From Deltaproteobacteria bacterium HGW-Deltaproteobacteria-22 (lineage in GTDB: Bacteria > Myxococcota_A > Polyangia > HGW-17): 64,000 bases of DNA. The DNA lies in assembly GCA_002841825.1 (NCBI GenBank), contig PHAZ01000001.1:3107-67106 (forward strand), given 5' to 3'. Every line of letters begins with the position of its first letter. Within the stretch, counting starts at the first letter, position 1. The translations under genes and the position numbers were made by a program. Of this stretch, positions 16,911-57,930 are shown in pieces. The notes below the pieces were generated by a model. It did no database searches, was not told the origin of the DNA, and saw only the letters and a program-made list of their open reading frames with translations.

Positions 16911-16917
16911 GTAGGGA

Positions 16918-38447: not shown

Positions 38448-38477
38448 CAAGCCTTAATCGTTCCGGCTGATTTTTTC

Positions 38478-40637: not shown

Positions 40638-43600
40638 TCAGGGCACCTCCTCCGGGTCGACCATGGAGACGAACGTGCCATCAAAACTGATGACACCCTG
40701 TGCGACGAGGTCGTCGATCATCGGCTTCGCCATCGGCCGCAAATGCTCTGGGAGCATCTCCCGGACGCGGTTCAGGTGCAGGGCACCTTCGCTGAGTGAA
40801 TGGGACGTGACAGCGAGCCGGAAGTGCTCCAGTTCGTCGACGTTGGCGGTGACCGAGACAATTTCCTCGGGGAGATCCAAGTGGCCAGAAAAACCCACGC
40901 TGGTGCCGGCACCACTTCCTGTCTCTTGATAAATATTTTCTTGTTCTCCGCCTTCTTCTTCTTTTTCTTCTCCCCGAAAAGGGTACCCCTCAATCCGTGG
41001 GTTTTTTTGGCCACTTACGACTTGGCCCACACCAAGGTCGACATCGGCGAGCCCCGGTTTCGGCGTGAACGTGGGCTTCTGTTTCGGCAGCAGCTTAATG
41101 CCGGTTACGCCACGCGTTCGGTAATGATCCTCCTGACGGCGGCAGACCTCACCGCCCCAGGTCACCTCCACTGCCGCGAAAAACCGGTCATGGCTGAAGG
41201 TGTCCCGATGGTCGTAGTCAGGCCACCACTTGTTGTAGGCAACGTCGATGTCGTCCCAAGAGATGTAGTGGCTCTCGGACTGCTGGAACCTCTCCCACAA
41301 AAAACGGGCCTCGACGGTCGTCAAGGCCTCGGCGAGGTAGACCGCCTCCTCCACGGGCTGCGTGTACTGCCACGTCCCCGTTTCCAGGTAGCGCCGGGCA
41401 AAATGGACCCCGTAGGAGAAGATGATATCCATCTCGGCCTCGTCCTGGGTCCAGGCGAGCTCCGCATCCATCTGGTTCTCGGCCGTGTACCGGATGCGGT
41501 GCGACCACACGTGGACGTTGCGACGGTCTGCACCTCCACGAGTGCGGTCCTTCCCGATGCTGGGATGGTTGCTGAGGATGACGATCAGGCTTGTGTTCAG
41601 GAAGCTCGTGGCATCCTGGTACACGGGCGCCCCAGTCAAGGTCTCAGCCGTCGTGGCCTCCTTGATGAAAGGACCGAGAATGTCGAACACGTTGTGCGGC
41701 GCGTCGTCGAAGACGGCGAGCAACTTGCCTCTCAGGGTCGAGATACCCCGCAACCGCCGTTCACCAGTGAAATCGGCGATCTGCGCATGCAGGATGTTCG
41801 AGTCACCCACGAGGATCGCGACGTACTTCATGAAGGTAGACTTTCCTTCACCGCCAGGTCCCCAAAAAATAATGCAGATGCCGGTCTGCCGCGTGAGCAG
41901 CAAGCGGGCGATCATTTCGATGAGGGCGACGATGTTCACGCCCCACCGCTCCCAGGCCTGGATGGTTTTCAAGGATTCCAGCGGCGGCAACTGTGTCGGG
42001 TCCTCGATGAATGTGCGCGGCACGTAGAACACTGCAGGCTGCTTCGGCCGCCCGGGAGTGAACCACCGATCAAGCTCGAAGGAGATGAAGCCGTTCTTGC
42101 AGAGAATGCCCTTCTGGAGCACTTCGCCGCCTCGGAATTCGAGTACGGCGGTCGCGAGGTACCAGGCCACGAGCGTGAACTCACTTGGCTCCAGCGGACG
42201 CCCCGCGACCGTGTTGAACAGATCGTGGAGTTCCTCTGGCCGAACCGGGCTGAGATGCCCTTCGGTGTTGACTCGATGGAACGTGGGCGTCATCGACGGG
42301 CGGCTCGGCGGCTCGATGCACACTAAACTGTCCCCGGTGCTTCTTGCCACGCCTCGGGCGATGACGACATACTCGTCCTCTTGTGGTTCTCCTTCGGATT
42401 CTAATTTTTCCAGCTGCTGCCTCTCGGTTTCAATGATCAACTTTCCGAGATCTGTGAGGGTGCACTTGAAGTGCTTTGCACCTGCCTTGAGGACTTTTTT
42501 GATCATCACTGGGTTGGCTCGCACCAACTCGTACGCGAAAGACTGCAGGACCTTGGGAAGCTGGTCTGACGGGGTATCAGTTGGGATGGCCAAGAGTTGA
42601 TCGATGAGTTCCTTCTCCGTCGGCGAAGGCGCTGCGCTGGCTTTACTTGCCATCGGTGCCGGCAGAGAGGTCGTTGGGATCGACGTGAAAGTGTAGGTCA
42701 AGCCACCATGAGCGAAGCTCCAGATGTACGGTGGCTTGCCCGGTTTGACGATGAACTGTGCGAGCCGTTCACCGCCGTGGTAGTCAGGTTCCAGCGGATC
42801 GGAGAAGGTCTTCCCGTTCCACTTTTCCTGGTCCCCGAGGAGCTCACCGACCGTGACCTCGCCGGCCTGCCCGTGCAGCACGAATTCGTCTGGCAGCACG
42901 TGGGTGGCAGCAGCCACGCCCAGGCGGTCACGCATGTGCTGCGCTTCTTCCGGCGACTGAGGGCGTCCCGCACGTTGGCCGTCCTTCTGGATGCGATCCT
43001 CGATCCACGCAGCACGGACAGCGTCGGCCTCGTCCTGGGCGTCTGCCTTGAGCGCGGCGACGATCTCTTTGAGACGCTCATCTTCTTCCGGCGTGAGCGC
43101 GGTGAGCGCGGTGACAGTATCCAGCACGCTACCGTCTTTCACCGTGGGTGCCGGCCTTAACTGGACGAGGCCCTTGCCGCAGGCCGCACCGGCTGCAAAG
43201 TCGAGCCGCTCCGGCTGCCACACGGATCCATCGATGGACGTGCGCAGCAGCATCGTTCCAGCCTTGGTGACCTGGATGTACCCGTGCCCCGCAAGGACGA
43301 GCCGGTCAAACAGCAACTGCCCTGCGCGTGGGATGTCCTGGCCGTTTTTCGCAACGAGGTAGACCCGCTTGCCGCCTTCGCCCTTGAGAACTTCGCCGGT
43401 CTTCTCATTGACGATGAAGGTGCTCGCGCTGTCGGTGACAACCAGGGCGCAGTCCGCGATCTCTGGGCACACCGACACCAGGAGTCCTACCAGCTCCTCG
43501 CGTGTCAGTGGCATGGTGCCCGGCCGGATGTCGAAGTCGATCATCATGATCGCGAGTCCGGCGAGAAAACGGAAGTTCTCTCGGATGCGGGCGAGGTCGC

Positions 43601-43853
43601 CTGGACCGACGTTTTCACGGGTCGTGACGTGTGCCTCGTCCACGTTGGGGACGCCGTAGCCGCACGCCTGGTTGATCAACAGTTGGATCAGGAGCTCGAT
43701 GAAGCCGTGGGGGAAGTCCGCTTCGACGCGCTTGACCTCGCCGTTCCAAAGGTTGCCCCCAGGCAGGATGACAAGCTGGTCGTTCTCCAGCGTGATGGAT
43801 TTGGTGAGCCGGGGTGGCTCGTGGGACGTGAAGACCGAAATGGGCACCCTCAT
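40638..43853 (-). CDS. Phage/plasmid primase-helicase (P4-family C-terminal NTPase domain)
   Basis: 1071 aa. Walker A IIFWGPGGEGKSTFMKYVAIL and Walker B LAVFDDAP in a D5/P4-primase-type helicase domain. Large N-terminal domain. Acidic C-terminal tail. Confidence 0.65.
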   Translation of the reverse strand: MRVPISVFTSHEPPRLTKSITLENDQLVILPGGNLWNGEVKRVEADFPHGFIELLIQLLINQACGYGVPNVDEAHVTTRENVGPGDLARIRENFRFLAGLAIMMIDFDIRPGTMPLTREELVGLLVSVCPEIADCALVVTDSASTFIVNEKTGEVLKGEGGKRVYLVAKNGQDIPRAGQLLFDRLVLAGHGYIQVTKAGTMLLRTSIDGSVWQPERLDFAAGAACGKGLVQLRPAPTVKDGSVLDTVTALTALTPEEDERLKEIVAALKADAQDEADAVRAAWIEDRIQKDGQRAGRPQSPEEAQHMRDRLGVAAATHVLPDEFVLHGQAGEVTVGELLGDQEKWNGKTFSDPLEPDYHGGERLAQFIVKPGKPPYIWSFAHGGLTYTFTSIPTTSLPAPMASKASAAPSPTEKELIDQLLAIPTDTPSDQLPKVLQSFAYELVRANPVMIKKVLKAGAKHFKCTLTDLGKLIIETERQQLEKLESEGEPQEDEYVVIARGVARSTGDSLVCIEPPSRPSMTPTFHRVNTEGHLSPVRPEELHDLFNTVAGRPLEPSEFTLVAWYLATAVLEFRGGEVLQKGILCKNGFISFELDRWFTPGRPKQPAVFYVPRTFIEDPTQLPPLESLKTIQAWERWGVNIVALIEMIARLLLTRQTGICIIFWGPGGEGKSTFMKYVAILVGDSNILHAQIADFTGERRLRGISTLRGKLLAVFDDAPHNVFDILGPFIKEATTAETLTGAPVYQDATSFLNTSLIVILSNHPSIGKDRTRGGADRRNVHVWSHRIRYTAENQMDAELAWTQDEAEMDIIFSYGVHFARRYLETGTWQYTQPVEEAVYLAEALTTVEARFLWERFQQSESHYISWDDIDVAYNKWWPDYDHRDTFSHDRFFAAVEVTWGGEVCRRQEDHYRTRGVTGIKLLPKQKPTFTPKPGLADVDLGVGQVVSGQKNPRIEGYPFRGEEKEEEGGEQENIYQETGSGAGTSVGFSGHLDLPEEIVSVTANVDELEHFRLAVTSHSLSEGALHLNRVREMLPEHLRPMAKPMIDDLVAQGVISFDGTFVSMVDPEEVP

Positions 43854-44590
43854 GGTGTCACCCCCTGGTTGATTTTTTGTTTTTTGGCAGGCCGACGATC
43901 AGTCGGTACGACGAAGCTCGCGACGAGTCGATAGACCCGTGCGACGGTTTCCAGATGTTGGGGCGTGTTCGCCCTTGCGGATGCTAGACGAGGTCGTGGG
44001 CCAGGTTCATCACCCGGCCCGCTAGATGGGCCTGATTCGCCCCCGGAGGCTGAGCCCGGGGGTGATGTGGACCGGGAAGAGGATGAACTTGCCGAACGGC
44101 GTGCTCGATGTGCTCTGGCGCGGTGCTTCACGATGAAGCGGATATGTGGGACGGACGCACGCCTGGACTGAACACGCGGCTGGGGATAAGACGCTCGGTA
44201 CAACAGCCGGTATGGAAGATCAGGATCGGAGTTTTCTGGACCCAACTGGGGAGGGGAGCCAGCGGGCGGAAGCTCTTCGTTATGTCCAAATGCCATATCG
44301 TATTCTTCTTGAGTAAGCCGATTATCCATCTCGCAGGATTCATTTTCCTGGTTGTAGGTCTCCGCGTCATGGACTACAAACTCGCCCGACTTCATGAGGT
44401 CGGTGATCTTCTGGACTTGTTCCGACTGCTCTTTCTTCTTCCGCCGAATGAAGGCAGCCTCCGAGGGCCGGCCGTATCTGTTCGAGCGATTTCTCCTGAT
44501 GGTCTTCATCCACAAATCTCCGTCTCCCAACGACCGGGTCTGAGCACCGGTTGTCAAAACTGGATATAAGTCCTCCAGGATCATTTTCAA
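43850..44590 (-). CDS. Hypothetical protein (low-complexity C-terminal half; the real extent is uncertain)
   Basis: ORF only. The C-terminal Ser/Arg/Pro-rich part may be non-coding read-through. Confidence 0.3.
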   Translation of the reverse strand: MKMILEDLYPVLTTGAQTRSLGDGDLWMKTIRRNRSNRYGRPSEAAFIRRKKKEQSEQVQKITDLMKSGEFVVHDAETYNQENESCEMDNRLTQEEYDMAFGHNEELPPAGSPPQLGPENSDPDLPYRLLYRASYPQPRVQSRRASVPHIRFIVKHRARAHRARRSASSSSSRSTSPPGSASGGESGPSSGPGDEPGPRPRLASARANTPQHLETVARVYRLVASFVVPTDRRPAKKQKINQGVTP

Positions 44591-44805: not shown

Positions 44806-47775
44806 TCAGGTGCGGGCGAGCAGATCTTCGACGGTGCTGGCGACCACGTAGCGGGCTGCGGAACCTTCATGCGCTTCCAGGGCGTGGAAGTGCGCACGAC
44901 CGCAGGCGATTTTTCCCTGTTCCTGCTGACGCAAATCTTCCACGAACAGGCTGCCCTTGGTCTCCACCACGAAGTAGAGCCGCTGCTGGTTCTCGGTTTC
45001 CACGAGCACCGCCCAGTCGGGATTGTACCCACCCAGCGGCGTGGGGATGGAGAACCACCCCGGAAGTTTCGCGTACACCCGGACGGCAGTGTTGCTTTCA
45101 AGCCCACGGGCAAAATCCGCCTCCACCTGCGAGTCGTACACGATCTCCTCCGTGGCCGACTTCTTCGTGACGAGAAGATTACGCAGGTAGCCGCTGAGCT
45201 CCTCCTGCTCGAACAATTCCTGGGCGTAGTAGCTCGCATCACCGATGCGTTGATACCGAATACCATCGACAATGGCGGAACGCTTGCACCGAGCGATGAC
45301 CTCCACCGCGAGTTCGATGAACTTCTGGGGATTGCGCTTGAAATCTCCCAGCCGGCTGCAGCGCTGCAGGATGCGGCAGAGGGTGCGGCGCGTGAGCTGG
45401 GTGCGGTTCTGCATCTCCGTAAGGATGTCCGGCAGCTCCAGACCGCCCTCCTCCAGATGGACGGTGGTATCGGCATTCAGATGGGTGGGCGTCACGCCGG
45501 CCCTTCCAATGGTTAAATCCGCCTTGCGCCACTGCATATTTACGCGCGCAATGGCAGGTGCGTTCTCGATGGCCAGCGCGCACGCCTCGATCAACTGTTC
45601 GTTGTCGAAGTCCAGGCGGTAGGTGGTCTTGAATTTGATACGATCCCACAACTCCTTGAATTCCTGGCTCTGCAGCACGGCCTGGCGAGGCTGGACGCGC
45701 CTTCGTTCGTCGGCGTTTTTCACGTCCAGGCGTCCGGCCAGTTTTTTTAACATGGCAGTAATAGGCTCCCGGGAGGCGAGGAAGCGCTCCGGCAGCTGCA
45801 ATCTTCCGGAAGCCAGCACCTGTCTGAGCTTGTCCGTCACGCGTCCCTGCGCGTCGATGAAGCCCTCCGCCAACAGGAACTCCCACAACTGGCCTGATGG
45901 CTCCCGCCCCAGTGCGGTGGTCACACCATCGCTTCCGGTCACGGGAAGGGCGGCGAACTGGTCCTTTTCCACCACGCCGAAGCGGATGCCGGTGTCCTGT
46001 TCGATTTCCTTCTGAAGGTTCTCGGCGAAGCGTTCGTAGCTCTCCCGTGCCACCACGGTCAGCGTGTTGATCTCGAATCCACGCACACGCTGGCCTTCCT
46101 GGTTCACGCAAAGGCGCAGTCCGCGGCCGATGGTCTGCCGACGCTCCCGCTCCGAACGCATGTCACGCAGCGCGCAAATCTGGAACACGTTGGGACTGTC
46201 CCAGCCTTCCCGCAGCGCGGAATGGGAGAAGATGAACTTCAGCGGCGTGTTCAAATCGAGCAGCCGCTCCTTGTCCTTCATGATGAGGTTGTAGGCGCGC
46301 TCTGCGTTCTCCCTGTTGGTCTGGTTGCTCTCGGTGGTGTCCGACCACCCACCCTTGCGGTCGATGGAAAAATACCCGTCGTGAACATCCCGGGCGACAT
46401 GGGTCTGATCCACCTCACCAAAGAGCGAGGCGAAGTCAGGATGCCGGGCTGCACGCAGGTATTCCTCCTCGAAGATCGTGGCGTACACACCGGCAACCGC
46501 CTGCCCCTGTTCGTCGTATTGGCGATACCGAGATACCTGGTCGATGAAGAACAGGGACAGCACTTTAATGCCCTGTGGCCGGAGCCGTTTCTCCTTCTCC
46601 AGGTGCTCCCGGATGGTCCGTCGGATCATCTGCCGGTGAACGGCCAGATCGTCCACATCTCCTTCGACCTCGCCGGGACGAAGGAAGACATCTTTTCCCG
46701 GACAGTTCAGTTCCATGAACTCTTTGCCTTTAGCCGCGCGCAGCTCCCCTACGCGGTAGTTTGCGTACAGGGCACGCCCCGTGGTCTGCTCCAGATCATC
46801 TCCGGCCTGCAGCGTCACTTCCATGCGCTGCACGCTGCTCTTCTTCTGCACGTCGAGTTCCACGCGAGCCCGGATTTCACCCTTGCGCGCATCCACACGA
46901 ACCAATCGCACGTAGGGCTTGTTGTATGCGTCCTCCACGGTCGCGGCCGCCACCTCGATTTGTTTGACGAGCTTGCGTTCGTAGGCGTCGACGGCGTCGA
47001 GTCGATATACCATCGCATGCTTGTCTGCATGGGTGGCCGAATACCGCAGCGTGCACATCGGGGACATGGCTCCCAGCGCCTCCTTGCCGCGTCCCTCCAG
47101 TCCACCGTCCACGCTCTGCGGCTCATCCACGATCAACACCGGTCGCGTGGCGCGGATCAGGTCGATGGGCTTTTCCCCGCCCGTCTTCTCACTCTCCTTG
47201 TACAGGTTGTTGACGTCCTTCTTGTTGATGGCGCCCACCGTCACGACCATGATCTGGATATGCGGACTCGTGGCGAAGTTCCGGACCTGTCCGAGCTTGG
47301 ACGAATCGTACAGAAAGTACTCGTAATGCACGCCGGCGTAGAGTCCCTTGAAGTGCTCCTCCGTGATCTGCAGCGACTTGTACACGCCTTCCTTGATGGC
47401 GATCGACGGCACCACGATGACGAACTTGGTGAACCCGAAGCGCAGATTCAACTCGAAGATCGTGCGCAGATAGACGTAGGTCTTGCCCGTGCCCGTCTCC
47501 ATCTCCACCGTGAAATCTCCGGCACCCAGATCCACCGAAGGAGCCAGTCCGTTGTGGAGCTGGACCTCGTGCAGGTTCTTCATCAGTTCGTCATCGAGCA
47601 GCGTCAGCCGGTTCCCAATGCCCAGGCCGCTCTCGAACACGTTCTCCATCCGTCCCACGGCGGCCCGCGTGACGGTGAACTCGGTGCGACAGACTTCCTG
47701 GCCCCGGAAGAGCCCGCATACCGCGTCGACAGCCTGCAGTTGGTAGTCCAGTTGGGGCTCGAAGTGCAGCTTCAT
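44806..47775 (-). CDS. res: Type III restriction enzyme, Res subunit (SF2 helicase + endonuclease)
   Basis: N-terminal MKLHFEPQLDYQLQAVDAV typical of Res. Motif I EMETGTGKTY. Motif II LIVDEPQS. Helicase C-terminal motifs. About 990 aa. Confidence 0.85.
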   Translation of the reverse strand: MKLHFEPQLDYQLQAVDAVCGLFRGQEVCRTEFTVTRAAVGRMENVFESGLGIGNRLTLLDDELMKNLHEVQLHNGLAPSVDLGAGDFTVEMETGTGKTYVYLRTIFELNLRFGFTKFVIVVPSIAIKEGVYKSLQITEEHFKGLYAGVHYEYFLYDSSKLGQVRNFATSPHIQIMVVTVGAINKKDVNNLYKESEKTGGEKPIDLIRATRPVLIVDEPQSVDGGLEGRGKEALGAMSPMCTLRYSATHADKHAMVYRLDAVDAYERKLVKQIEVAAATVEDAYNKPYVRLVRVDARKGEIRARVELDVQKKSSVQRMEVTLQAGDDLEQTTGRALYANYRVGELRAAKGKEFMELNCPGKDVFLRPGEVEGDVDDLAVHRQMIRRTIREHLEKEKRLRPQGIKVLSLFFIDQVSRYRQYDEQGQAVAGVYATIFEEEYLRAARHPDFASLFGEVDQTHVARDVHDGYFSIDRKGGWSDTTESNQTNRENAERAYNLIMKDKERLLDLNTPLKFIFSHSALREGWDSPNVFQICALRDMRSERERRQTIGRGLRLCVNQEGQRVRGFEINTLTVVARESYERFAENLQKEIEQDTGIRFGVVEKDQFAALPVTGSDGVTTALGREPSGQLWEFLLAEGFIDAQGRVTDKLRQVLASGRLQLPERFLASREPITAMLKKLAGRLDVKNADERRRVQPRQAVLQSQEFKELWDRIKFKTTYRLDFDNEQLIEACALAIENAPAIARVNMQWRKADLTIGRAGVTPTHLNADTTVHLEEGGLELPDILTEMQNRTQLTRRTLCRILQRCSRLGDFKRNPQKFIELAVEVIARCKRSAIVDGIRYQRIGDASYYAQELFEQEELSGYLRNLLVTKKSATEEIVYDSQVEADFARGLESNTAVRVYAKLPGWFSIPTPLGGYNPDWAVLVETENQQRLYFVVETKGSLFVEDLRQQEQGKIACGRAHFHALEAHEGSAARYVVASTVEDLLART

Positions 47776-48191
47776 GATTCGTCCCCAGCGATGGAGCGTC
47801 GCAGGATGGCCGCCCGCTCGGACTCGATGAGCAGCATCGATAGATTAAGAAATGCCCGAAAATCGAAGATCGCCAGCACGGTCGTTTTGGTAACGAAATT
47901 CGTTTCGTCACCAAAATGACCCTGAAGGCATAGCTTGAACGATTTCAATCGGGTGCCGCGCAGGACCTCGTAGCCGTTTTTGGTCAACTCCTCGCCGTAT
48001 CTATCCAGATAGTTGTCGATGGTCCGAGGGGTCACCTCGAAGAAAGCGGCGACTTGTTCCTTCAAGACCACGGTCTTTCCCTCGAAGGGAATTCCCTGGA
48101 TACCCGCGGCCTTCTCAATCTCCGAAAGCGCGTAGGGGTTGTTCAGGATGTTCTGGCGATCGATCTCCGAGGAGGTCAGGTCCTTTCCCAT
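47772..48191 (-). CDS. Small protein between mod and res, RhuM-family-like putative DNA-binding protein
   Basis: 140 aa after trimming the track ORF to MGKDL.... The VLKEQVAAFFEVTPRTIDNYLDRYGEEL segment resembles the N-terminal HTH-like region of RhuM-type proteins that commonly interrupt R-M loci. Start and stop overlap the mod and res genes. Confidence 0.4.
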   Translation of the reverse strand: MGKDLTSSEIDRQNILNNPYALSEIEKAAGIQGIPFEGKTVVLKEQVAAFFEVTPRTIDNYLDRYGEELTKNGYEVLRGTRLKSFKLCLQGHFGDETNFVTKTTVLAIFDFRAFLNLSMLLIESERAAILRRSIAGDES

Positions 48192-48193
48192 GG

Positions 48194-50113
48194 TTACAAA
48201 CTCCTCACGTTGGTGACGCCGTGCTGCAGCAGGATCGCCGACAAGTTGACCTTGGCGACATCGTCGACGAACGCACCATCGCGAAAGACGCAAGTCGGAT
48301 CTCCAGCGGTGCCCAACTCCCGTCGCCAGCCCACGATGCCCAGCGCCAGGGGTTCGATCTGCTCCCGGGAGATCTTTTCCGCCAGACAGGTCACCAGCGT
48401 ACCGCCGCCGATGGCGCTGACTTCCAGTCCGGCGATGGTTCTTTTCTGTAGGGGTACGCACAGGTCCAGACCCAGCTTGAGCAGGACTTCGTAGAGCAGA
48501 TCCTGCTCCGTGCGTCCGGGTTTGACGTGCTCGACGGCATCCAGCAGCGAGCGTTCCAGGTCGCGATGATCCGGGTCCCACTCCCGCAGGTTGGTGGCGT
48601 CGAGTTTGAACACGCGGAAACCAAGGTCAGGAGGCACCGGTTTCATCCCTTCGCTTTCCGAGAAGAGGTCACCCTGACGAGTACTCTCTGTCGCTTGCAG
48701 CTCTTCGGTAATCTTCTTTCCCGCTCGCCGCAGACGCTCCTTGGTGATATCGGAGATATTAACTATGGATTCCGAGATCCTTTCCTTTAGTGGCTCTTGC
48801 AGTTGAATAATAATGAATCTTTTATTTAGATTACTTGAAAGGTTCTGTGCCATTACTGCGTGGGCTGTCGTTCCAGATCCAGCAAAAAAATCAAGAACTA
48901 TCCCTTCTTCATCTGGGGAGAAGGCTAGTTGAATCATTCTACTAATAAGCAATGTAGGTTTTGGCGTGTCAAAAGATTCACTTTCGGGGAATAGTGCTCT
49001 CATCTGATTTTTCGAGGTTCGATTGCTCCCAACATCTTCTTTTCGCCAAAGCGTCCGAGGAGTGAGATCTCCGACTTCAGTAAGGTATCTTTTTATACTA
49101 GGTCGCGCGTCATTAGTTGGTCCCCACCAGATTCTGCCGTCAGAATCCAGTTCTTGAAGTTTTTCTTCTGAGATTCTCCAAAATCTTCCAGGTGGGGGTG
49201 AGAAAGTTCGCCCCGTTGGGCCTTTCACAGAATATTTTCCTTTGGAATAAGGCTTATTTGCGTAGGGATCACCGGGCAGCCATTCTCCACGAGGATCATT
49301 ATCTGGATTATTGTAAATGGAATTAGCCTCTTCTGTGCGAGGTAAGCGGGATGGTACCCATTCAGGTGATTTTGAATAAACAATTAGGAAATCATGGTCT
49401 TCGGAAAATTGACGTGCTGTATTTCTCGGTGAATCGGCTTTTTCCCAAATCACGGTAGCGACGAAATTCTCAGAACCAAAAATGTCATCCATAATCATCC
49501 GCAGGTTCGCCACTTCGTTGTCGTCGATGCTGACGAAGATCACGCCGTCGTCTCGCAACAGAGTGCGGGCCAGCTTCAGGCGCGGATACATCATGTTCAG
49601 CCAGTCCGTGTGGAAACGTCCGCTGGCTTCGGTGTTGGAGGAGATTTTCTTCCCACCCTCGACCTGTCCCGTCAACTCCAGGTAGTTGCGGATGCTGTCC
49701 TGGAAGTTGTCCGGATACACGAAGTCCTTGCCGGTGTTGTAGGGCGGATCGATGTAGATCAACTTCACGCGACCGGCGTAGCTCTTCTGCAGCAACTTGA
49801 GCACTTCGAGGTTGTCGCCCTCGATTAGCACGTTCTGGGTGGTGTCCCAGTCCACGCTGTCTTCAGGACAAGGCCGCAAGGTACCCGTGGAGGGTAAAAG
49901 CGCTGCCTGTCGTGCCTGCCGTTTGCCGAACCAGTTCAGTCCGAACTTCTCCTCCCGATCCTCGACGCGACCTCCCAGTAGTTGACGCAGCACCTCGAAG
50001 TCGACCTTCCCTTCGACGAAGGCCTCCGGAAACAAAGCGCGCAACTGCTCCAGGTTCTCTGTCACGAGCTCCAGGGAGTGCGTCATCGGGTCGGTGGGTT
50101 CGATTTTCTTCAT
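48194..50113 (-). CDS. mod: Type III restriction-modification DNA methyltransferase, Mod subunit (N6-adenine)
   Basis: DPPYN catalytic motif (LIYIDPPYNTGKDF). SAM motif FFAGSGTTAHAV. 639 aa. Confidence 0.85.
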   Translation of the reverse strand: MKKIEPTDPMTHSLELVTENLEQLRALFPEAFVEGKVDFEVLRQLLGGRVEDREEKFGLNWFGKRQARQAALLPSTGTLRPCPEDSVDWDTTQNVLIEGDNLEVLKLLQKSYAGRVKLIYIDPPYNTGKDFVYPDNFQDSIRNYLELTGQVEGGKKISSNTEASGRFHTDWLNMMYPRLKLARTLLRDDGVIFVSIDDNEVANLRMIMDDIFGSENFVATVIWEKADSPRNTARQFSEDHDFLIVYSKSPEWVPSRLPRTEEANSIYNNPDNDPRGEWLPGDPYANKPYSKGKYSVKGPTGRTFSPPPGRFWRISEEKLQELDSDGRIWWGPTNDARPSIKRYLTEVGDLTPRTLWRKEDVGSNRTSKNQMRALFPESESFDTPKPTLLISRMIQLAFSPDEEGIVLDFFAGSGTTAHAVMAQNLSSNLNKRFIIIQLQEPLKERISESIVNISDITKERLRRAGKKITEELQATESTRQGDLFSESEGMKPVPPDLGFRVFKLDATNLREWDPDHRDLERSLLDAVEHVKPGRTEQDLLYEVLLKLGLDLCVPLQKRTIAGLEVSAIGGGTLVTCLAEKISREQIEPLALGIVGWRRELGTAGDPTCVFRDGAFVDDVAKVNLSAILLQHGVTNVRSL

Positions 50114-50136
50114 CGTGTTGACTCCATGCTACGGGC

Positions 50137-50907
50137 TTACAAACGGCGCTTCCACATTTCCAGTTCCCGCTGCGCCTGCGCCAACTCGTCATTGAGCTGC
50201 ACCTGGCGGGCGATCTGCTTTTCCCGACGGGCAGCGGATCGAAGCCGGGTCATCATGCTACCGATTCGCGCCACCTCCCGCAATGCTTCTTCTCGTTCCC
50301 TGGCCCGCTCGGGAGTGGCGCAGATCGAGAAGTTCCCCAGGATGCGGGCAGTCTGCAGGGCCAGCAGAGCATCGATCCAGCTCTGATACAGTTGGTGCAT
50401 GTGCATGCGCCGCTGGTTTCCCAAGGCCAGACTGCCACGGAAATCCAGCAGGAAAGGCGCGTCGGGATCGGTGATGGAGCCCACGGTCACGACCTTGCCG
50501 TCAAGCACCGTTCGGGAAGGATCCTGGAGGGCACGTCGGATGTGCACCGCCGATAACTGGGTGCAGTCGGCCTGCTCGGTGAGCAGCAGCACCGGATAGG
50601 GAACGGACCGATGCACGCGTTCCACCATGCGTCCGATCCGTGCTTGCGGACGAAGCGACAGGTGCAGCACGGCGATCTCCTGGTAGTCTCGCGCAGATTC
50701 GCGATAAGCAGGAACGCCGATGGTGGTGGGCTTGAGCGTGGCCAGCCAGAACAGGGCGACAACACCTTCCGAGATAGCCTTGCGATCCGCCGGGGAAAAG
50801 ACTGCATTTTCCAACAGCAATTTCTTTGGAATGCGCAGGTTCAATCGACACGTGTCCGGAAGATCCAGCGCCGCTACGAGATCGTCGGAGTTGAAGATCT
50901 CCTTCAC
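50137..50907 (-). CDS. DUF4391-like protein (helicase/R-M-associated, function unknown)
   Basis: 256 aa. Position and size match DUF4391-family proteins found between SNF2 helicase and type III mod genes. Assigned from memory of that family and its context, not from a search. Confidence 0.5.
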   Translation of the reverse strand: MKEIFNSDDLVAALDLPDTCRLNLRIPKKLLLENAVFSPADRKAISEGVVALFWLATLKPTTIGVPAYRESARDYQEIAVLHLSLRPQARIGRMVERVHRSVPYPVLLLTEQADCTQLSAVHIRRALQDPSRTVLDGKVVTVGSITDPDAPFLLDFRGSLALGNQRRMHMHQLYQSWIDALLALQTARILGNFSICATPERAREREEALREVARIGSMMTRLRSAARREKQIARQVQLNDELAQAQRELEMWKRRL

Positions 50908-53900
50908 TGCGGTTTTCCTCGATCGTCTTCGTCGGAAAGCACTACCAAAAAGGCGAGCACCTCGAAGTCCTGGCTGCCGGAGAATTCCCCGGTGACTGCG
51001 TGCGTGCCCCCCGGTGAGAACAGACTGGCTGCGGCCTTCTCTTCGCTCTTTCCTGCGATGGAGGCAATGGCAGCAGAGAGCGCACGCTGGGCCTTGCGCA
51101 TGTCGAAGCCGTTCTTTGTTTCTCGATCAAAACGGTTGACCGCGCCCGCATCCACAAGGTCGCGGCCGATGCACAGCCGTTTGATGCGATCCAGGAGTTT
51201 CTTCGTCTGGGTGTAAGGCAACACTACGGTGCCATCATCGGTCACGTGCACGAGGAAGTGCGGTGCCAGCGGATACCCGTCGGAAGAGAACCGTGAGGCG
51301 GCAGGTCCCTCAGCGCGCAGGCAGAACAGGAAACCAGGTGGGATGTCGATCTCATGCGTCGTGGTGACGGCAAACGAACCGAAGGGGGCACTGTCGAGCG
51401 TTCCGGGATGGGCCTTCAGATGGCGCGCCAGATCGATGCGGAAATCCGTGAGCGTGAGATCGGCGATGGAAACGCCGGAGGAAAGATCCTCCAGGTCGAT
51501 GACGGCATCCTGAAGCTTGAGTAGCTGCTTGCGCCGGTATTCCAGATCGTTCATCTGGTTGCCGACCGCAGCCTGGATGAGGTTCTCCTCGCCCGTGGCG
51601 GAGATGTCCAGCAGCACCATGCGTCCGCCGACGCGCTGTTCCAGGTTGATGTACTCTTCGAGCTCCATGTTGGGCCAGAAGTTGATCAACTGGATACGGT
51701 CGTTGGGGCTGCCGATGCGGTCGATGCGGCCGAACCGCTGGATGATGCGCACGGGGTTCCAGTGGATGTCGTAATTGATGAGCGTGTCGCAGTCCTGCAG
51801 GTTCTGTCCTTCGGAAATGCAATCGGTGGCGATGAGCAGATCGAGCTCCCCTTCATCGGCTAGAGCTTCCGGCCGTTCCTTGGAACGCGGCGAGAAGGCC
51901 GTGAGAATGTTGGCCAGCTCACGGCGGAGTTTGGGCAGCGTCGTCTGGTTGGTGCCGGCACCGGTCACCAGGGCGCTTTCAATCTGATGCGTCTGTTTGG
52001 CCCAGGTGGCCAGATGTTCGTAGAGATAGCGGGCCGTATCCGCGAAGGCGGTGAAGACGATGACCTTCCGATTGCCGTGATTGACCGGATGCTTGAGCTT
52101 GTGCTCGATGACGCCTTTGAGGTTCGCCAGCTTCGCGTCTCGTGCAGCATCCACCTGATGCGCGGCCTGCACGAGCGTGGACAGGCGGTTGCGATCCTCG
52201 ATGAGATCCTGCCTCCAGCGGATAAGGTCCACATCGTGGAGGAGTACTTTAATCTTGCGACCCACGAGCTGGCTCTCGAACTCGGGATCCTCGATGTCCA
52301 TTTCCTCGATGTCGATGGCTTCCACCTCCTCGCTGGTGGGCTGCTGTTCGATGCGGTCGAGCATGGCTTCCACGTCGTCGAGTTGTCGCTGCATGGTGAG
52401 CTGGAAGGACGTGACGGAACTTTCCATCCGCTTGAGTGCGTTGATGCGGATCAATTGAATGAGACTGTCCTCACGGTCCTTCTGACGGAAAAAACCTTCG
52501 CCGCTGCTGAGCACGGTGCTGTACTTGCGATCGTAGGACTCCTGCCGGTGTGCCAGCACGTATCGCAGCGGTGCGTAGGCCGCCAGGTGCAGGTGTCGGA
52601 TCTCCGAGTTGATCGCGGCGATGGGAGGAAACACGCCGGCGTTGTCGACATCGGCCTTGATGTTGATCGGGGTCAAGCGATCCGGAAAACGGCCCGTCTC
52701 CTCGATGCCGTAGTACTTCTCGATGTGCTTGCGGGAGCGTGCAATTGTGAGCAGATCCAGCAGGGTGAAGTAGTCGAAGCCCAGCATGTCCACCAGGCGC
52801 AAGGGAGTCCGTTCTGCCTCGTCCAGTGTGAGCCAGCGATTGAACTGCTTCTGCGCGATGCGGGTGGTGGTGTCGATGCTGGCGATCCCATACTCCTCCA
52901 GGGCGGTGTCCTTGCCCTCAGTGGCGAACGCGATCTGGTTGCGCAAATCGGCCAGGCGGTTGTTCACGGGAGTGGCCGAGAGCATCAGCACGCGCGTCTT
53001 CACGCCTTCCTGGATAAGCTTGCGCATCAACTTGCCGTAGCGGGTTTCCCCGTCCATGTGCGGCGTGCGGCGATTGCGGAAGTTGTGCGACTCGTCGATG
53101 ACCACGAGGTCGTAGTTGCCCCAGTTGATGTGCGCGAGATTGATATCGCCGGAGATACCACCATCGCGCGAAAGGTCCGTGTGATTGAGCACGTCGTAAG
53201 AGAGACGATCTGCAGCGAGGATGTTGCGACAGTCGTTGGCCTTGTAAATCGTCCAGTTGTCACGCAGACGTTTGGGACACAGCACCAGCACCCGATCGTT
53301 GCGCAGCTCATGGTACTTGATGATGGCCAGCGCCTCGAAGGTCTTTCCCAGACCGACGCTGTCGGCGATGATGCAACCGCCGTGACGTTCGAGCTTGTCG
53401 ATGGCACCGATGACACCATCCCGCTGGAATTTGTAGAGCTTCTTCCAGACCATGGTGTTGCGGATGCCGGTGGCCGATTTGATGATGCGATCCTCGTCGA
53501 GATCGTCCTGCCTGTCAGAGAACAGATGGAACAGCATCAGCGCATACAGGGAGGTGGGATCGCGTGGGGTGGCGATATCCTGTAACGCCTGTAGCAGAGC
53601 CTGCGAATTAGTTCCGTCGGAACGTCGCGCATTCCACTGCGCCTCAAACCATTGGGCCACGGAGTCCGCTTCTTCGCTAGTCTGGGAAGCCTGGATCAAA
53701 TTCATGGGATTGCCCGGCGTCAAACCTAGGCCGTCGGTCGAAAACGACAAGGTTCCCGACAGTGCCAGAACCGGCTTTCCATCTGGGTTTGAAACGACCC
53801 AGGTGCCCTGCGGGATCGCTCCCTGCGCAAATCGAAACTCCACCTGCGAGGATGTCAACCAAGCCATACAATGGTTCGCCCAATGCCGCAACTGCAGCCG

Positions 53901-54125
53901 GTTTCGTGCCGGCCGATCCGCCTCGCTTCCCGTCAGCGCCAGTGCATCCATTTCCTCAGGCAACAGCAGGCGGCATTGCGCCAGGTCTGAAAGTCGCTTC
54001 ACCATTTCCGCAAAGGCCAGAAGCGACAACCGTGATGTCACGACATCCAACCGATTTCCGACTTCCAGCGCCGACGCCAGGTGATCCATGACGCGGTCGC
54101 TTCCGACATTGCGCACGATTCTCAT
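50904..54125 (-). CDS. SNF2-family helicase with about 220-aa N-terminal extra domain
   Basis: Motif [14 protein letters not shown]. Motif II [12 protein letters not shown]. Motif III [9 protein letters not shown]. C-terminal helicase domain [43 protein letters not shown]. 4-bp overlap with the DUF4391 gene. Confidence 0.85.
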   Translation of the reverse strand: [1073 protein letters not shown]

Positions 54126-54537
54126 GTTGGACTCCTTGGATGGTCGACCATTTCATTCGCAGCCACCTGCAGCGGCTCCTTCCGGAGTATGGCAGAGGGG
54201 AGAAAAAGTCAAGGATTGGTGGGTCTCATTGCAAGCACAACGAAGACACCACCCAGCAGGTGGACAGTCTGTGGTTCATGATCCCTGAATGGGAGTAAAA
54301 GTCCTTGGCTCTTGTTTCCGAAATTTTCAACTTGACCCTTCAATAAATTTTACTAGTATTGCTTTATAGCCATTTGTCCACTTGTACTTAGAATTTTTTA
54401 CTGTCAGCTAATATTGGTCATTGGTGTTAAATGGAGCTGGTTCATACAGAAACACGGAGTCAACTTTTTCCATATGATCGCGTTAGCATTGATCGTCCTT
54501 TACACGATGAGTTAAAAATTCTCACGGGAGTGTGTGC

Positions 54538-54810
54538 ATGCCTACTTTAATTAGCCCAAATACCCTACCGCGTGGCACGGTTGCCTATAACATGCTATCC
54601 AAATTCAAGGATCTACTTCAAGCAAAGCAAAGGCACCGTATCGTCGTTACGACACCTGACTACTATCAGATCGAAATTCTGTGGGGACTATTCAGTCTGG
54701 AGAAAGGTGAAAAGAGAGAGTTTCTCATTGAAGGTGGACCAGAGTTCTGCGCGGCAGTTCTCCAGTCGCTGCGGTCTGATGCTAAGATCCTGAAACTCTT
54801 GGAGCAGTAA
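54538..54810 (+). CDS. Hypothetical protein in an AT-rich segment
   Basis: ATG with GGGAG Shine-Dalgarno 7 nt upstream. 90 aa, no recognisable motif. Low-GC codon usage unlike the flanks. Confidence 0.4.
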   Translation: MPTLISPNTLPRGTVAYNMLSKFKDLLQAKQRHRIVVTTPDYYQIEILWGLFSLEKGEKREFLIEGGPEFCAAVLQSLRSDAKILKLLEQ

Positions 54811-54842
54811 CCGAGTTATGTATCGGGAAAAAGGAGTTGCTC

Positions 54843-54995
54843 ATGCGAAAATTCACCGTAATAGCGGTATTGATTTCCATTTTAGCGGCCATTTCGCTTA
54901 CTGCTTGCCCACCTGGTGGTGATGACGAGGCCACAAAGCGCGGCGGAGGGGGAAAGCAACAGCCCTACAATCCAAATGACGGACGCTATAAATAA
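54843..54995 (+). CDS. Small lipoprotein (50 aa)
   Basis: AAGGAG Shine-Dalgarno 7 nt upstream. MRKFTVIAVLISILAAISLTAC lipoprotein signal. Gly-rich mature peptide. Confidence 0.45.
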   Translation: MRKFTVIAVLISILAAISLTACPPGGDDEATKRGGGGKQQPYNPNDGRYK

Positions 54996-55006
54996 GGAGG
55001 TTGAAA

Positions 55007-55150
55007 ATGTGGACATTGGTTCTTGCAGATGAGTGGCTGTTTGGCTGGAGTAGGGGAATGTGGAAGGTCATGGCTATTATTATCATTGTTATCTTTATTC
55101 TCACTCGCGGAAAAATGACCTTTAAGGACGACGATAATGATGAAGAATAG
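55007..55150 (+). CDS. Small single-TM membrane peptide (47 aa)
   Basis: AAGGAGG Shine-Dalgarno. Hydrophobic core KVMAIIIIVIFIL. Acidic C-terminus DDDNDEE. Confidence 0.4.
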   Translation: MWTLVLADEWLFGWSRGMWKVMAIIIIVIFILTRGKMTFKDDDNDEE

Positions 55151-55181
55151 CTAATATAAACAACATATGGGAGCAGGAAAC

Positions 55182-55400
55182 ATGACAAAGAAATGTTTTT
55201 TTCCACTGTTGATATCCTTCATTTTTTTCGGGAATTCTTCTTGTAACAACTCGAATAAGGAGAAATGCAATAGTTATCAACAATGCTTAGATAATTGGGC
55301 ACGGGGAGATGGACCGCAAGTTTCCGCTAGCGAAATTTATGCATATTGCGCAAACCAAAGCGGAATCAGTGTCCCATCAAATCCTAATAAATGCGATTGA
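55182..55400 (+). CDS. Small secreted Cys-rich peptide (putative lipoprotein, five Cys in the mature part)
   Basis: GGAG Shine-Dalgarno. Signal MTKKCFFPLLISFIFFGNSSC. Mature roughly 50 aa with C-x4-C...C...C spacing. Confidence 0.45.
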   Translation: MTKKCFFPLLISFIFFGNSSCNNSNKEKCNSYQQCLDNWARGDGPQVSASEIYAYCANQSGISVPSNPNKCD

Positions 55401-55417
55401 TTCCTTATTCTTCTTGC

Positions 55418-55463
55418 CTATTCCGGAGCATCGTGGACACCTATTCCGGAGCATCGTGGACAG
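55418..55463. repeat. Tandem 23-bp direct repeat x2 (CTATTCCGGAGCATCGTGGACA[C/G])
   Basis: Two adjacent copies with one mismatch, immediately downstream of the small-peptide genes. Confidence 0.8.
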
Positions 55464-55588: not shown

Positions 55589-56422
55589 TCAGTCCTGACT
55601 GGCGCACATGCTCCTGTAGCTGCAGCCGCCGCATCTCCAACTCCTGTGTTTAGGCAGGACGAGCTGGGGATGGTCGTGGGACAGGGCAAGGGAGATGATT
55701 GTGGAGGCGGATGCGGCCAGGGTCAGGGCGCCTCGCTCCTCTTTGGCGGGGTCATGGCGGGCGATGGTCTGGAGGGTGACTGCAGGAATTTTGGATTTTT
55801 GGAGGAACTGATACTGCAGGGAGACATCATCGACGTCGAAGATAGTCTTGGCCGCGAGTGAATACAAAGACATCTGAGTGTCCGGTGCGGCGACCTTGTC
55901 GTTGTCGATGCGCGCAGCCGTCTTGTGGTCGGTCACGACGATCTGTCCGTTGCGTTCTTCGACGAGATCGAAGGTACCGAGCAGGCACTCCGGGAGTTGC
56001 TCGCCCGAGAACGGGTTCACTAGCGGGAGAACAAACTTGAATTCAACGGCAAGGATGTGGGCAGGACGGTAGCCGGTGGCCAGGAAGGCCGTCAGCATCG
56101 CGCTGGCCTGCGACTTTAGCGAATCGATGGACTCGCCCTTCTTGAACGAGATGGGTGCTCTCTGCGGGGCATCGATGGCCGCCGAGGCCACGTCGACGAG
56201 TTCGGTGAGCGTCGGCTCCGTGCCGGACTGCTTCACGGAATTGTAGAAATAAGCGAGCGATTCGTGCACCGCGGACCCTAGGATGAGCGCGGCGCCGGTG
56301 TCTTGGGGCGGTTGCCCTTGGATGTAGTGGTAGAGGAATTCGCGGGGGCACTCAATGAGGGTGGAGATCGAGGAGGCCGAGAGGTGAAGTGCTTCATCTT
56401 GCGGAACGGGATTTGTAACCAT
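55589..56422 (-). CDS. PD-(D/E)xK nuclease-superfamily protein, Cas4/RecB-like, with C-terminal Cys cluster
   Basis: Motifs around QIVVTDHKTA (D..E.K core). Three C-terminal Cys (CGGCSYRSMC) plus an N-terminal Cys (IEC), the Cas4/AddB-type Fe-S arrangement. No cas1/cas2 or CRISPR nearby. Confidence 0.6.
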   Translation of the reverse strand: MVTNPVPQDEALHLSASSISTLIECPREFLYHYIQGQPPQDTGAALILGSAVHESLAYFYNSVKQSGTEPTLTELVDVASAAIDAPQRAPISFKKGESIDSLKSQASAMLTAFLATGYRPAHILAVEFKFVLPLVNPFSGEQLPECLLGTFDLVEERNGQIVVTDHKTAARIDNDKVAAPDTQMSLYSLAAKTIFDVDDVSLQYQFLQKSKIPAVTLQTIARHDPAKEERGALTLAASASTIISLALSHDHPQLVLPKHRSWRCGGCSYRSMCASQD

Positions 56423-56780
56423 GGGATTCTCCTCCGATCAGTTCGGAAATCAGCGTACTGGCTTCCTTGGTCGACAGATAGTTCAGCGCCTTGCTGAAGC
56501 GAGCCTTGCAGCTCGCGTCGAAGGCGTTCCAATTGCCGTCGAGTTTCTCGTTACACAGCTTACGCAGCATGGCGAGCTGGCGGCTGCTGATGCGACCTTT
56601 CTCATCGATAGCGGGGGCAGGCGTTTCGTTGGTGACGGGAAGCGGCGTGCTGTTGGTGGTCGCGGGAATGTGGCTGTTGGCGGGGTGAACGAGGATCAGC
56701 ACCTCGGCGATCTCTTTGCAGATCTCGTGGAGGTTCTGACCGATGTGGTCGAGATGGTTGCGAAGTTGTTCTTGTTCCAT
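56394..56780 (-). CDS. Hypothetical island protein, paralog B
   Basis: AAGGAG Shine-Dalgarno. C-terminal ISSRQLAMLRKLCNEKLDGNWNAFDASCKARFSKALNYLSTKEASTLISELI aligns with the protein at 39745..40209. Track ORF trimmed to MEQEQL. Confidence 0.55.
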   Translation of the reverse strand: MEQEQLRNHLDHIGQNLHEICKEIAEVLILVHPANSHIPATTNSTPLPVTNETPAPAIDEKGRISSRQLAMLRKLCNEKLDGNWNAFDASCKARFSKALNYLSTKEASTLISELIGGESHGYKSRSAR

Positions 56781-56943
56781 AACAAATCTCCTTGGATTGA
56801 AGCGGGTTATTTGCGCTTCTTGGGGTGGCGGTTGTTTTGCGACGGTTGCGGTTGCGGCGGAGAAGCCGGGATCCAAGCGACGACGATCTCGGCAACTTGC
56901 AAAATGAGGCAAATAACTTTCGGGTTCATGTGGTGATCTCCTT

Positions 56944-57930
56944 TCAGGCCGCTGCGAGTTGCATGGCCAGTTGCAGTGCGGTTTCTTTGACCTGCATGCC
57001 CTGTCCGAACCAGGCAGAATACATTCGGCTATCAGGGTTGTTGAGATTGCGTGAGTGGTCAACGAACTCCGAAACTGCATTCAGTGCGCGCCAGAAATTC
57101 GTCGCTGTGATATCGGTGCCGCGGCCGTTCTCGAAGAGTGCGGTAATTCGATCGCGGATTGAGCGAGCGCTGTTGCGCTTGGCGGTTTCGGCGGGATCGG
57201 GGAAGAGGCGGGTGAGGTACTCGCTCAACTGGAAGGTGTTGATGCTGCGCTGGGCCAGGTAACGGTACAGGTCGGCACTCTGCTCAAACTGGGCATTCAC
57301 GCCGGCCAGGTATTCAGCGACGTTCTGGATCCTGGCGACTGCACCGGCCGTGTGTCGGATGCTGATTCGCTTGTGCTTATCGGCGCGGGCTGTGGCCATG
57401 GCGAGGGTGTTCGAGCAGACCACGCGGATCGGCGTGAACATGATGCGGACGGGGCTGCTTCCGTCATGGGAATTTGAGAGCAGCAGATACTTGTCGACAA
57501 CGTCGTCTCCGGCAATGCGAAGGTTTCCATTGAGACGTGCGAGAACAAATACGGTTCGGCCGCCGCGAAGACTGCCGGCCGTGTGATACTCCACCATTCC
57601 CGTTTCGACGATCCGATTGAAAAACTCGAATGCAGCCTCATTCTGTACAGGGCGATATTGGTCGCCCACGACGCCGAGAGTTTGATAGGTGGGGGTGGTG
57701 TCGGCCTGCGTGATCTTGCGAACGACGGCGAAATGCCTCGGCACGCTCAGTGCATGCCACGTGTTGTTGTCCTGCACGATCGCTTCCAACGGCGTCTTGA
57801 AAACACTCCATCCGAGTCCTGCGGAAACAATCGCAGCAGCAGCGGTGGGCGGTGCGTCGGCAAGCAAAACGCCAAGGCCATGCCAGGCTGGCTTCTGAAC
57901 GAAGAATCCATTTTCAAACTGATGGCTCAT
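56944..57930 (-). CDS. DUF932-family protein (phage/plasmid-associated)
   Basis: 328 aa. Overall similarity to DUF932/TIGR03299-type proteins common on integrative elements (MSHQFENGFF...GVV.DQY.PVQN...SLRGGRTVF...). Assignment from memory. Confidence 0.5.
   Translation of the reverse strand: MSHQFENGFFVQKPAWHGLGVLLADAPPTAAAAIVSAGLGWSVFKTPLEAIVQDNNTWHALSVPRHFAVVRKITQADTTPTYQTLGVVGDQYRPVQNEAAFEFFNRIVETGMVEYHTAGSLRGGRTVFVLARLNGNLRIAGDDVVDKYLLLSNSHDGSSPVRIMFTPIRVVCSNTLAMATARADKHKRISIRHTAGAVARIQNVAEYLAGVNAQFEQSADLYRYLAQRSINTFQLSEYLTRLFPDPAETAKRNSARSIRDRITALFENGRGTDITATNFWRALNAVSEFVDHSRNLNNPDSRMYSAWFGQGMQVKETALQLAMQLAAA

Follow-up and report, generated by a model that had tools for sequence, protein, structure and literature searches.

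Classical type III restriction-modification (R-M) systems hemimethylate an asymmetric site, and for ATP-dependent cleavage they require two unmethylated sites in inverse orientation. Type III is treated as R plus M only both in an R-M review and in a lactococcal survey of 2025 (PMC12707154, PMC12418389). Here we describe a type III locus in a 64,000-nt stretch of the metagenome-derived contig PHAZ01000001.1 of Deltaproteobacteria bacterium HGW-Deltaproteobacteria-22 (positions 3,107 to 67,106 of the forward strand; this whole stretch is "the window", and coordinates are those of the window unless a locus is named), in which genes for a Snf2 ATPase and a DUF4391 protein precede mod and res. All four genes of this conserved restriction cassette are intact and arranged as an operon, which is part of the cargo of a 24.6-kb defence island with its own integrase gene.

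Second ATPases are known from other methylation-based systems, where extra motors can be integral, as in MANTIS (10.64898/2026.09.23.753747), DISARM and Hma (PMC11232893). MANTIS, the former Gao_RL (BREX-related type 2), comprises a DUF499 AAA+ protein, a DUF3870 protein, a methyltransferase and an active effector that combines a phospholipase D (PLD) domain with a superfamily 2 (SF2) motor, and it prefers inverted sites in type III-like fashion (10.64898/2026.09.23.753747). Hma is made up of the Snf2-nuclease HmaA, the methylase HmaB (DUF1156) and the ATPase HmaC (DUF499) (PMC11232893). For the present locus we favor, at a probability of roughly 55%, a reading in which the Snf2 and DUF4391 proteins are functionally integrated with Mod and Res, the whole being a two-motor, four-component relative of type III systems.

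The Snf2-DUF4391-Mod-Res order

Five co-directional open reading frames (ORFs) lie on the minus strand, where a preliminary description of this DNA had placed them (Table 1). That description gave their junctions as overlapping or 2-20 nt wide, which is accurate for three of the four: the Snf2 stop and the DUF4391 start overlap by 4 nt, mod and the small ORF after it are 2 nt apart, and the small ORF overlaps res by 4 nt (ATGA); the DUF4391-mod gap is 23 nt. The Snf2 and DUF4391 genes are translationally coupled. No terminator-like site lies on the coding strand within the cluster, in a scan whose counts were at chance level overall, and the consensus promoter and terminator scans likewise gave counts no better than chance; the AT-rich leader ahead of the Snf2 gene has no consensus sigma-70 match on the minus strand.

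A scan with the DUF4391 profile, using one genome per species, returned 287 relatives, of which the best 80 loci were compared. The Snf2, DUF4391, Mod and Res genes stand on one strand in nearly all of these 80 that have enough flank, and loci without a downstream Mod or Res gene are disrupted by insertion sequences (ISs) or transposases. The phyla represented are Acidobacteriota, Pseudomonadota, Chlorobiota, Planctomycetota, Cyanobacteriota, Nitrospirota, Latescibacterota, Chloroflexota and Bacillota. The same four genes are present on plasmids of Paraburkholderia, Acinetobacter (inside a Tn7-like element), Shewanella, Vibrio (IncC) and the archaeon Methanomethylovorans, with DUF4391 proteins 24-29% identical, and also on Enterococcus, Listeria, E. 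coli, Acinetobacter NEB149 and Bacillus plasmids, in an Erysipelothrix element and in the two E. coli chromosomes inspected. Every annotated plasmid or E. coli locus that was inspected from a DUF4391 match, or from a Snf2 match of at least 40% identity, has the full order. Four loci were inspected from Res matches; two carry the cassette, one is IS-decayed and one is without Snf2-DUF4391. The order is thus kept from Proteobacteria to Firmicutes and an archaeon. Chance adjacency was considered as an explanation and is ruled out by these synteny data, the arrangement being far beyond chance. The preliminary description was therefore right that the helicase-DUF4391-mod-res association recurs in genomes and right to suspect that the locus is more than a plain two-gene type III system, since both extra genes are present in nearly all related loci.

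Spacing between the Snf2 and DUF4391 genes is at most 54 nt in 65 of 75 loci. A related helicase gene is found in 88 of 5,426 complete E. coli genomes, and PLSDB holds 115 plasmids with a full-length Snf2 relative and 142 with a full-length Res relative. Lactococcal plasmids have full-length Res and Snf2 matches about 4.3 kb apart on one strand (search matches only), two of these plasmids being labelled as from a dairy environment. At about 27% identity Snf2 relatives pair with a different partner. On a Planktothrix plasmid (L098, 6977-12559) the partner of a Snf2 relative of 28% identity is a 711-aa hypothetical protein, not DUF4391-Mod-Res, and this may be a different two-gene system.

The four proteins and their proposed joint action

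The assignment of the first gene product as a SNF2 ATPase, made in the preliminary description, is borne out by Pfam matches to SNF2-rel_dom and Helicase_C. The protein has a SNF2-related N-lobe, a Helicase_C lobe and motifs I-VI, including GLGKT (258-262), DESH (344-347), SATP and a further motif at 796-805, all intact, and the closest PDB sequence relatives of the motor are RapA and SNF2. To judge by these motifs, the motor is a genuine Snf2 enzyme.

Neither the N-terminal 237 aa nor the C-terminal 221 aa of the Snf2 protein has a Pfam match at E≤10. An extra N-terminal domain of about 220 aa had been recognized earlier and left without a family; it is indeed present, and the AlphaFold2 (AF2) model of residues 1-232, with a predicted local distance difference test score (pLDDT) of 84, places it among PLD folds. 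Its best Foldseek match is the PLD nuclease domain of SauUSI (7CLG, E=2.7e-6), and other matches are NgoAVII R, NucT, Zucchini, Tdp1 and the inactive PLD-like FAM83B and TrmBL2. The fold is that of the phospholipase D superfamily and the catalytic HxK(x)4D...GSxN motif is missing: throughout the Snf2 family Q106-G107 stands in place of HxK and GSxxFSTxGLG in place of GSxN, and both replacements hold in 50%-identical copies from E. coli, Vibrio, Shewanella, Acinetobacter and a methanogen. HxK is absent from 110 of 111 close homologues, with any HxK nearby in the 1 other. The loss of HxK is our reason for regarding the N-terminal domain as a predicted PLD-fold pseudo-nuclease. Of the PADLOC models, 'HKD+Snf2' scores best against the whole protein (E=3e-113), with an alignment confined to model positions 145-947; the lack of the first 145 positions from it is compatible with an origin from PLD-helicase effectors.

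The DUF4391 protein matches PF14335 over profile positions 1-232 of 232 (E=1.2e-57; 195.9 bits against a cut-off of 29.9), which upholds the earlier assignment. Its AF2 model, built from a 30-sequence alignment (pLDDT 90.6; predicted template modelling score, pTM, 0.87), has three long helices C-terminal to a six-stranded alpha/beta domain. Foldseek with this model gave nothing at E≤0.001 in the PDB (best E=0.037, prob 0.21) or BFVD, the DUF4391 profile has no match among PDB sequences, and PADLOC and NCBIfam hold no model for the family, which numbers about 2,050 clusters at 50% identity.

Mod and Res were correctly named in the preliminary description, and by their sequences they are canonical type III enzymes with all catalytic motifs. 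Mod (N6_N4_Mtase in Pfam, E=1.5e-38; MTase_III in PADLOC, E=2e-216) has the order of a beta-class N6-adenine methyltransferase, DPPY (122-125) before FAGSG (410-414) with the variable region in between; no phase-variation repeats were found in mod. Res has the Pfam domains ResIII and, C-terminally, RE_endonuc (E=1e-33), scores 1261 bits against PADLOC REase_III, and aligns collinearly with NF012027 along positions 1-960 of that 986-position model, at 332 bits where the cut-off is 564. It carries both the SF2 ATPase motifs (GTGKT 95-99, DEPQ 217-220, QTIGRGLR 547-554) and the C-terminal PD-(D/E)xK endonuclease (PD 919-920, ETK 938-940). What departs from type III is the gene content, which is not mod and res only: Snf2 and DUF4391 precede mod in nearly all related loci.

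Mean pairwise identities over 36 complete cassettes are 74% for the whole Snf2 protein (82% in the motor core, 52% in the PLD domain), 72% for Res, 56% for DUF4391 and 56% for Mod as a whole, falling to 26% in the Mod recognition domain. A Snf2 core that is 82% identical across phyla, above the 72% of Res, argues for strong selection. In the same 36 cassettes the divergence of the Mod recognition domain is uncorrelated with that of all other regions. This places specificity solely in Mod, and Snf2 and DUF4391 do not resemble specificity subunits. The Snf2 PLD domain is without HxK and DUF4391 is without a known fold, so there is no obvious route by which the pair could act by itself.

Table 1 Features of the cassette and island (window coordinates)
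Feature	Position (nt)	Strand	Length or residues	Remarks
Pseudo-PLD/Snf2 ATPase	50904-54125	-	1073 aa	
PLD-fold domain of Snf2 protein	53556-54125	-	aa 1-~190	Predicted structure
Snf2 core	51636-53453	-	aa ~225-830	Pfam
Snf2 protein, C-terminal region		-	aa 850-1073	Conserved, fold not assigned
DUF4391 protein	50137-50907	-	256 aa	GTG start
Type III Mod	48194-50113	-	639 aa	
Mod variable target-recognition region	48914-49441	-	aa ~225-400	
Remnant ORF	47772-48191	-	139 aa	GAGGAG precedes ATG
Type III Res	44806-47775	-	989 aa	
AT-rich non-coding leader, presumed promoter region	54126-54531	-		Upstream of Snf2 gene; GC 0.48
Left 22-nt direct repeat, putative att	38429-38450	.	22 nt	28 nt past integrase stop codon
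Right 22-nt direct repeat, putative att	63025-63046	.	22 nt	Repeat match
Tyrosine integrase	38478-39713	-		Left island end; Phage_integrase E=2e-28

If the four proteins do work together, we picture the following. A Mod2-Res complex would recognize and hemimethylate an asymmetric site and supply the only nuclease. Snf2 and DUF4391 would form a complex of their own, in which the dead PLD domain may dimerize or clamp DNA, as the live PLD domains do in SauUSI and MtsD (the PLD-SF2 protein of MANTIS), and DUF4391 would dock the Snf2 motor onto Mod-Res. The motor would translocate on double-stranded DNA and act with Mod-Res where the DNA is unmethylated; its role may be to power or gate communication between distant sites or to remove bound proteins.

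Several observations weigh against integration. An intact Mod-RhuM-Res locus without Snf2 or DUF4391 is present in Thiodictyon pTs485 (L091, 5002-11009), with a Res 52% identical to that of the window, and a Terriglobia locus (L031, 10001-17889) has DUF4391-Mod-Res with no Snf2 gene in the 10 kb upstream. These loci show that the add-on can disappear without damage to the rest, and the intact Mod-Res of pTs485 means that it is dispensable for the persistence of Mod-Res. Inserts longer than 300 bp separate Snf2 from DUF4391 in 10 of 75 loci (13%), DUF4391 from Mod in 16 of 72 (22%) and Mod from Res in 29 of 58; from those at the first two junctions it follows that tight coupling is not absolute. 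Among the top 150 family representatives there is no Snf2::DUF4391 or DUF4391::Mod/Res fusion, the only DUF4391 fusions, P0334 and P0354, involving accessory genes from the inserts, namely an AAA_12 helicase and AlbA_2. One point in favor of integration is that the DUF4391 N-domain and the C-terminal half of Res diverge in step (rho 0.70), as closely as the two Res halves do with each other; shared ancestry confounds this correlation, which suggests a lead only. Classical type III Mod-Res pairs are self-sufficient, and we infer both the function and the physical interaction of the cassette proteins from sequence.

These points bear on an alternative that we consider unlikely, in which two independent systems co-travel: a self-sufficient type III R-M system and a separate two-gene module of Snf2 and DUF4391 for defence or sensing, such as a back-up that responds to DNA damage or to anti-restriction proteins, with adjacency maintained through co-selection and co-transfer. 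Such a history would accommodate the sufficiency of Mod and Res in classical type III, the Thiodictyon locus, the ability of accessory genes to separate the two halves, and the clustering of defence genes on islands generally, here with Drt1a. It is harder to square with the loci examined from Snf2 matches of at least 40% identity, where Snf2-DUF4391 is never alone or with another partner except in IS-decayed copies, with an order and strand that are fixed across bacteria and an archaeon, and with a Snf2-DUF4391 pair that has no active nuclease or other recognizable effector.

The region ahead of the cassette bears on another alternative, quite unlikely in our estimation, in which Snf2/DUF4391 is a control module that loads or stimulates Mod (compare MtsA/MtsB of MANTIS) or strips Mod-Res from host DNA, the latter preventing self-restriction during establishment or after replication. 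MANTIS loads its methyltransferase in an ATPase-dependent manner (10.64898/2026.09.23.753747) and type III systems are hazardous on entering a new host (PMC12707154); the cassette lies overwhelmingly on mobile elements, where establishment matters, and its Snf2 gene is first in the order of transcription. A 1073-aa motor with an 82%-conserved core would, however, be costly for pure regulation. Many copies also have a small regulator upstream already. A small helix-turn-helix (HTH) gene directly precedes the Snf2 gene in E. coli, Vibrio, Shewanella and Enterococcus copies (8270-8434 in L087, 8252-8359 in L088, 5322-5558 in L086 and 1744-1944 in L092), the one in E. coli NCTC11023 (L087) being labelled MAD1-like in RefSeq, and a WYL-domain gene replaces it in some enterobacterial plasmids. 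The window has neither an upstream HTH nor a WYL gene, and the HTH genes of the other loci have no homologue in it.

Functional integration with Mod-Res is thus the reading we retain, and the stakes are considerable, as two conserved genes added to the type III pair are ignored by current defence-finding tools. If they act in restriction, the mechanism, the rules of phage evasion and the plasmid-transfer barrier of these loci need revision, and DUF4391 gains a function. A bolder form of the idea, possible but doubtful, is that Snf2-DUF4391-Mod-Res is a distinct and ancient class of ATP-dependent restriction, in which a Snf2 translocase, dimerized through its dead PLD domain and docked by DUF4391, couples distant Mod-Res complexes. 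Were this true, the rules for type III would change, for example by allowing cleavage with all sites in one orientation or shielded by protein, and a sizeable share of annotated "type III R-M" loci would be four-component machines (compare the 115 Snf2 and 142 Res plasmids of PLSDB).

Accessory genes and the island

The small ORF between mod and res had been described as a fifth gene, a 140-aa putative DNA-binding protein that was RhuM-like. Neither the RhuM-like label nor the standing of a fifth component is supported. PF13310 (Virulence_RhuM) does not match it at E≤10, nor does any other Pfam family, and BLASTP finds no similarity between its 341-aa full-length relative and the genuine RhuM of another locus. 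The ORF, here 139 aa, covers no more than positions 2-128 of PADLOC PDC-M59A, a candidate model 338 positions long. An intact 341-aa PDC-M59A gene occupies the mod-res slot in 3 of the 80 loci (L046, L060 and L067, Gallionella/Sideroxydans), where it is followed by a 147-aa Fic/Doc gene (PDC-M59B). The window's ORF is 72% identical in amino acid sequence to the first ~135 residues of the 341-aa protein and 79% identical in nucleotide sequence to the 5′ ~410 nt of its gene, and its final ~25 nt match the 3′ end of the Doc gene, ATGA overlap with res included. The 5′ part of PDC-M59A is thus joined to the 3′ end of Doc, and about 1.06 kb must have been lost by an in-frame deletion that removed the larger part of M59A and all but the end of the Doc toxin gene. 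The window accordingly has neither a full-length M59A nor M59B, which is deleted. By these alignments the 139-aa ORF is an in-frame deletion scar of a PDC-M59A/Doc pair and lies outside the conserved cassette.

The cassette junctions, above all mod-res, are insertion hot spots for accessory genes. The inserts include AlbA_2/HATPase_c_4 proteins, GmrSD, true RhuM, YhcG/DUF1016, DarT-DarG, Bro-N proteins, PDC-M59A/Doc, AAA_12 helicases and DUF4143 ATPases, and the small ORF of the window is one decayed example. Families known as accessory genes nested in R-M operons (RhuM, Fic/Doc, YhcG/DUF1016, AlbA_2 and GmrSD) are the same ones that occupy the cassette junctions; unlike such intact nested genes, the insert in the window has shrunk to a 139-aa fragment without its Doc partner. 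A ~1,240-aa AAA ATPase is inserted between DUF4391 and Mod in L019 (10772-14467) and, in L094 (7925-11680), lies next to the Bacillus cereus drmA-cassette locus, the two copies being 43% identical.

The 24.6-kb island is bounded by a 22-nt direct repeat whose copies are identical at 21 of 22 positions and are probably att sites of an integrative island. GC content drops across the left boundary, from 0.65 (37-38 kb) to 0.56 (38-39 kb), and the left repeat follows closely on a CHASE4-domain gene whose end is at 38373. There are no tRNA genes in the window and no Rfam RNAs in the island. Downstream of res (40277-44590, minus strand) are genes for a 246-aa protein without a family, a 1071-aa P4-type primase (DUF5906/primase_Cterm) and an HTH_17 excisionase-like protein. 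These form the island's replication/excision module, and the primase/HTH_17 module is absent from the other cassette loci.

On the other side of the cassette, several small ORFs divergent from it lie in a low-GC spacer upstream of the Snf2 gene (54532-55210, GC 0.48), among them a 92-aa ORF (54532-54810) and two that resemble a lipoprotein and a small membrane protein. A 23-nt unit (CCTATTCCGGAGCATCGTGGACA) is present as a perfect tandem duplication at 55417-55462, in AT-rich intergenic DNA upstream of the cassette. The segment from the cassette to Drt1a (55589-57930, minus strand) has genes for a PDDEXK_1/Cas4-like nuclease (277 aa), an unassigned 228-aa protein and a DUF932 protein (328 aa), and a DUF932 gene also neighbors the cassette in E. 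coli ABWA45 (L088). The gene at 58767-62537 (minus strand) encodes a 1256-aa reverse transcriptase-nitrilase with a full-length match to PADLOC Drt1a (1273 bits), so that the island of the cassette also has a DRT type 1 defence gene. Elsewhere in the window, the 13000-18000 stretch has a GC content of 0.42-0.51 against ~0.60 around it and may be another foreign segment.

Comparison with known systems

Membership of the locus in DISARM, BREX, MANTIS, MADS or Hma is rejected because the defining genes are missing. The preliminary description had suggested a DISARM- or BREX-like system, and of this idea only an analogy with DISARM stands. Like class 1 DISARM, the locus is a multi-ATPase, methylation-based defence with a Snf2-like ATPase gene beside an adenine methyltransferase gene; DISARM has no type III Res and no DUF4391, and the cassette is without drmA, drmB and drmC. 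Pfam and PADLOC find no DrmA or DrmB (DUF1998) among the scanned island proteins, tblastn with the B. cereus DrmA and DrmB finds nothing in the window, and both are absent from all other loci compared. As for drmC, no PLD fold occurs apart from the one at the N terminus of the Snf2 protein, which lacks HKD.

One could nonetheless propose a variant of class 1 DISARM in which Snf2 is the equivalent of DrmD and Mod that of DrmMI. The best NCBIfam match of the helicase is indeed DrmD (NF038317, E=4e-49), at 167.7 bits against a cut-off of 610, and in B. cereus plasmids (L094, 12724-26457, and L100) drmA-drmB stands 33 nt upstream of the cassette, without drmC. These B. cereus copies are one element with identical proteins, and the locus may be a composite of a DISARM core and the cassette. 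With DrmA, DrmB and DrmC absent from the window and from the other loci compared, membership of the window is refuted and an evolutionary relationship is all that could stand; we judge the proposal to be very improbable.

The BREX proteins PglZ and BrxC are absent from 14 island proteins searched with PADLOC, from the cluster searched with Pfam, and from the integrase, a 154-aa protein and the HTH_17 protein (Pfam only). No cluster protein matches an NCBIfam MAD model of MADS, whose one trace is the MAD1-like HTH gene upstream of the E. coli copy only, with no counterpart in the window.

The likeness to MANTIS is in general design: four genes, a methylation-based mechanism, two ATPases, a small protein and an N6-methyladenine (m6A) methyltransferase that sets specificity (10.64898/2026.09.23.753747). 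MtsD has the same PLD plus SF2 architecture as the cassette helicase (10.64898/2026.09.23.753747), although the catalytic HKD of the MtsD type is lacking here, Q106 replacing the His in the whole family. The cassette further differs in having a separate PD-(D/E)xK Res and neither MtsA (DUF499 AAA+) nor MtsB (DUF3870), for which there is no Pfam or PADLOC match in the cluster or the scanned island proteins. Hma shares a Snf2 helicase and a methyltransferase, and other defence systems are inserted between its core genes (PMC11232893); HmaA, however, has an active C-terminal PD-(D/E)xK nuclease, and the cassette helicase has only weak partial similarity to it (E=9e-22). SauUSI (7CLG), an ATP-dependent type IV enzyme, resembles the Snf2 protein in having a PLD domain, through which it dimerizes, followed by an SF2 motor. 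It differs in its active HKD site, in its own methylated-cytosine recognition domain and in acting alone, whereas the cassette protein is of Snf2 type, predicted to be nuclease-dead, and operon-linked to Mod and Res.

In keeping with the preliminary description, we found no characterized mechanism for the association in the literature searched, which held no description of the cassette or of DUF4391 beyond incidental mentions (subscription journals and REBASE lay outside the search). PADLOC and NCBIfam have no model for the four-gene cassette, and RefSeq names the extra genes "helicase-related protein" and "DUF4391 domain-containing protein".

The closest relatives of the cassette remain the classical type III systems (EcoP15I, EcoP1I and StyLTI). 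They share with it a beta-class m6A Mod with a central variable recognition domain, a Res, collinear over its full length, in which an SF2 ATPase is joined to a C-terminal PD-(D/E)xK nuclease, and an operon in which mod is upstream of res. They differ from it in having no pseudo-PLD/Snf2 or DUF4391 gene before mod, where the cassette has both in essentially every member of its clade.

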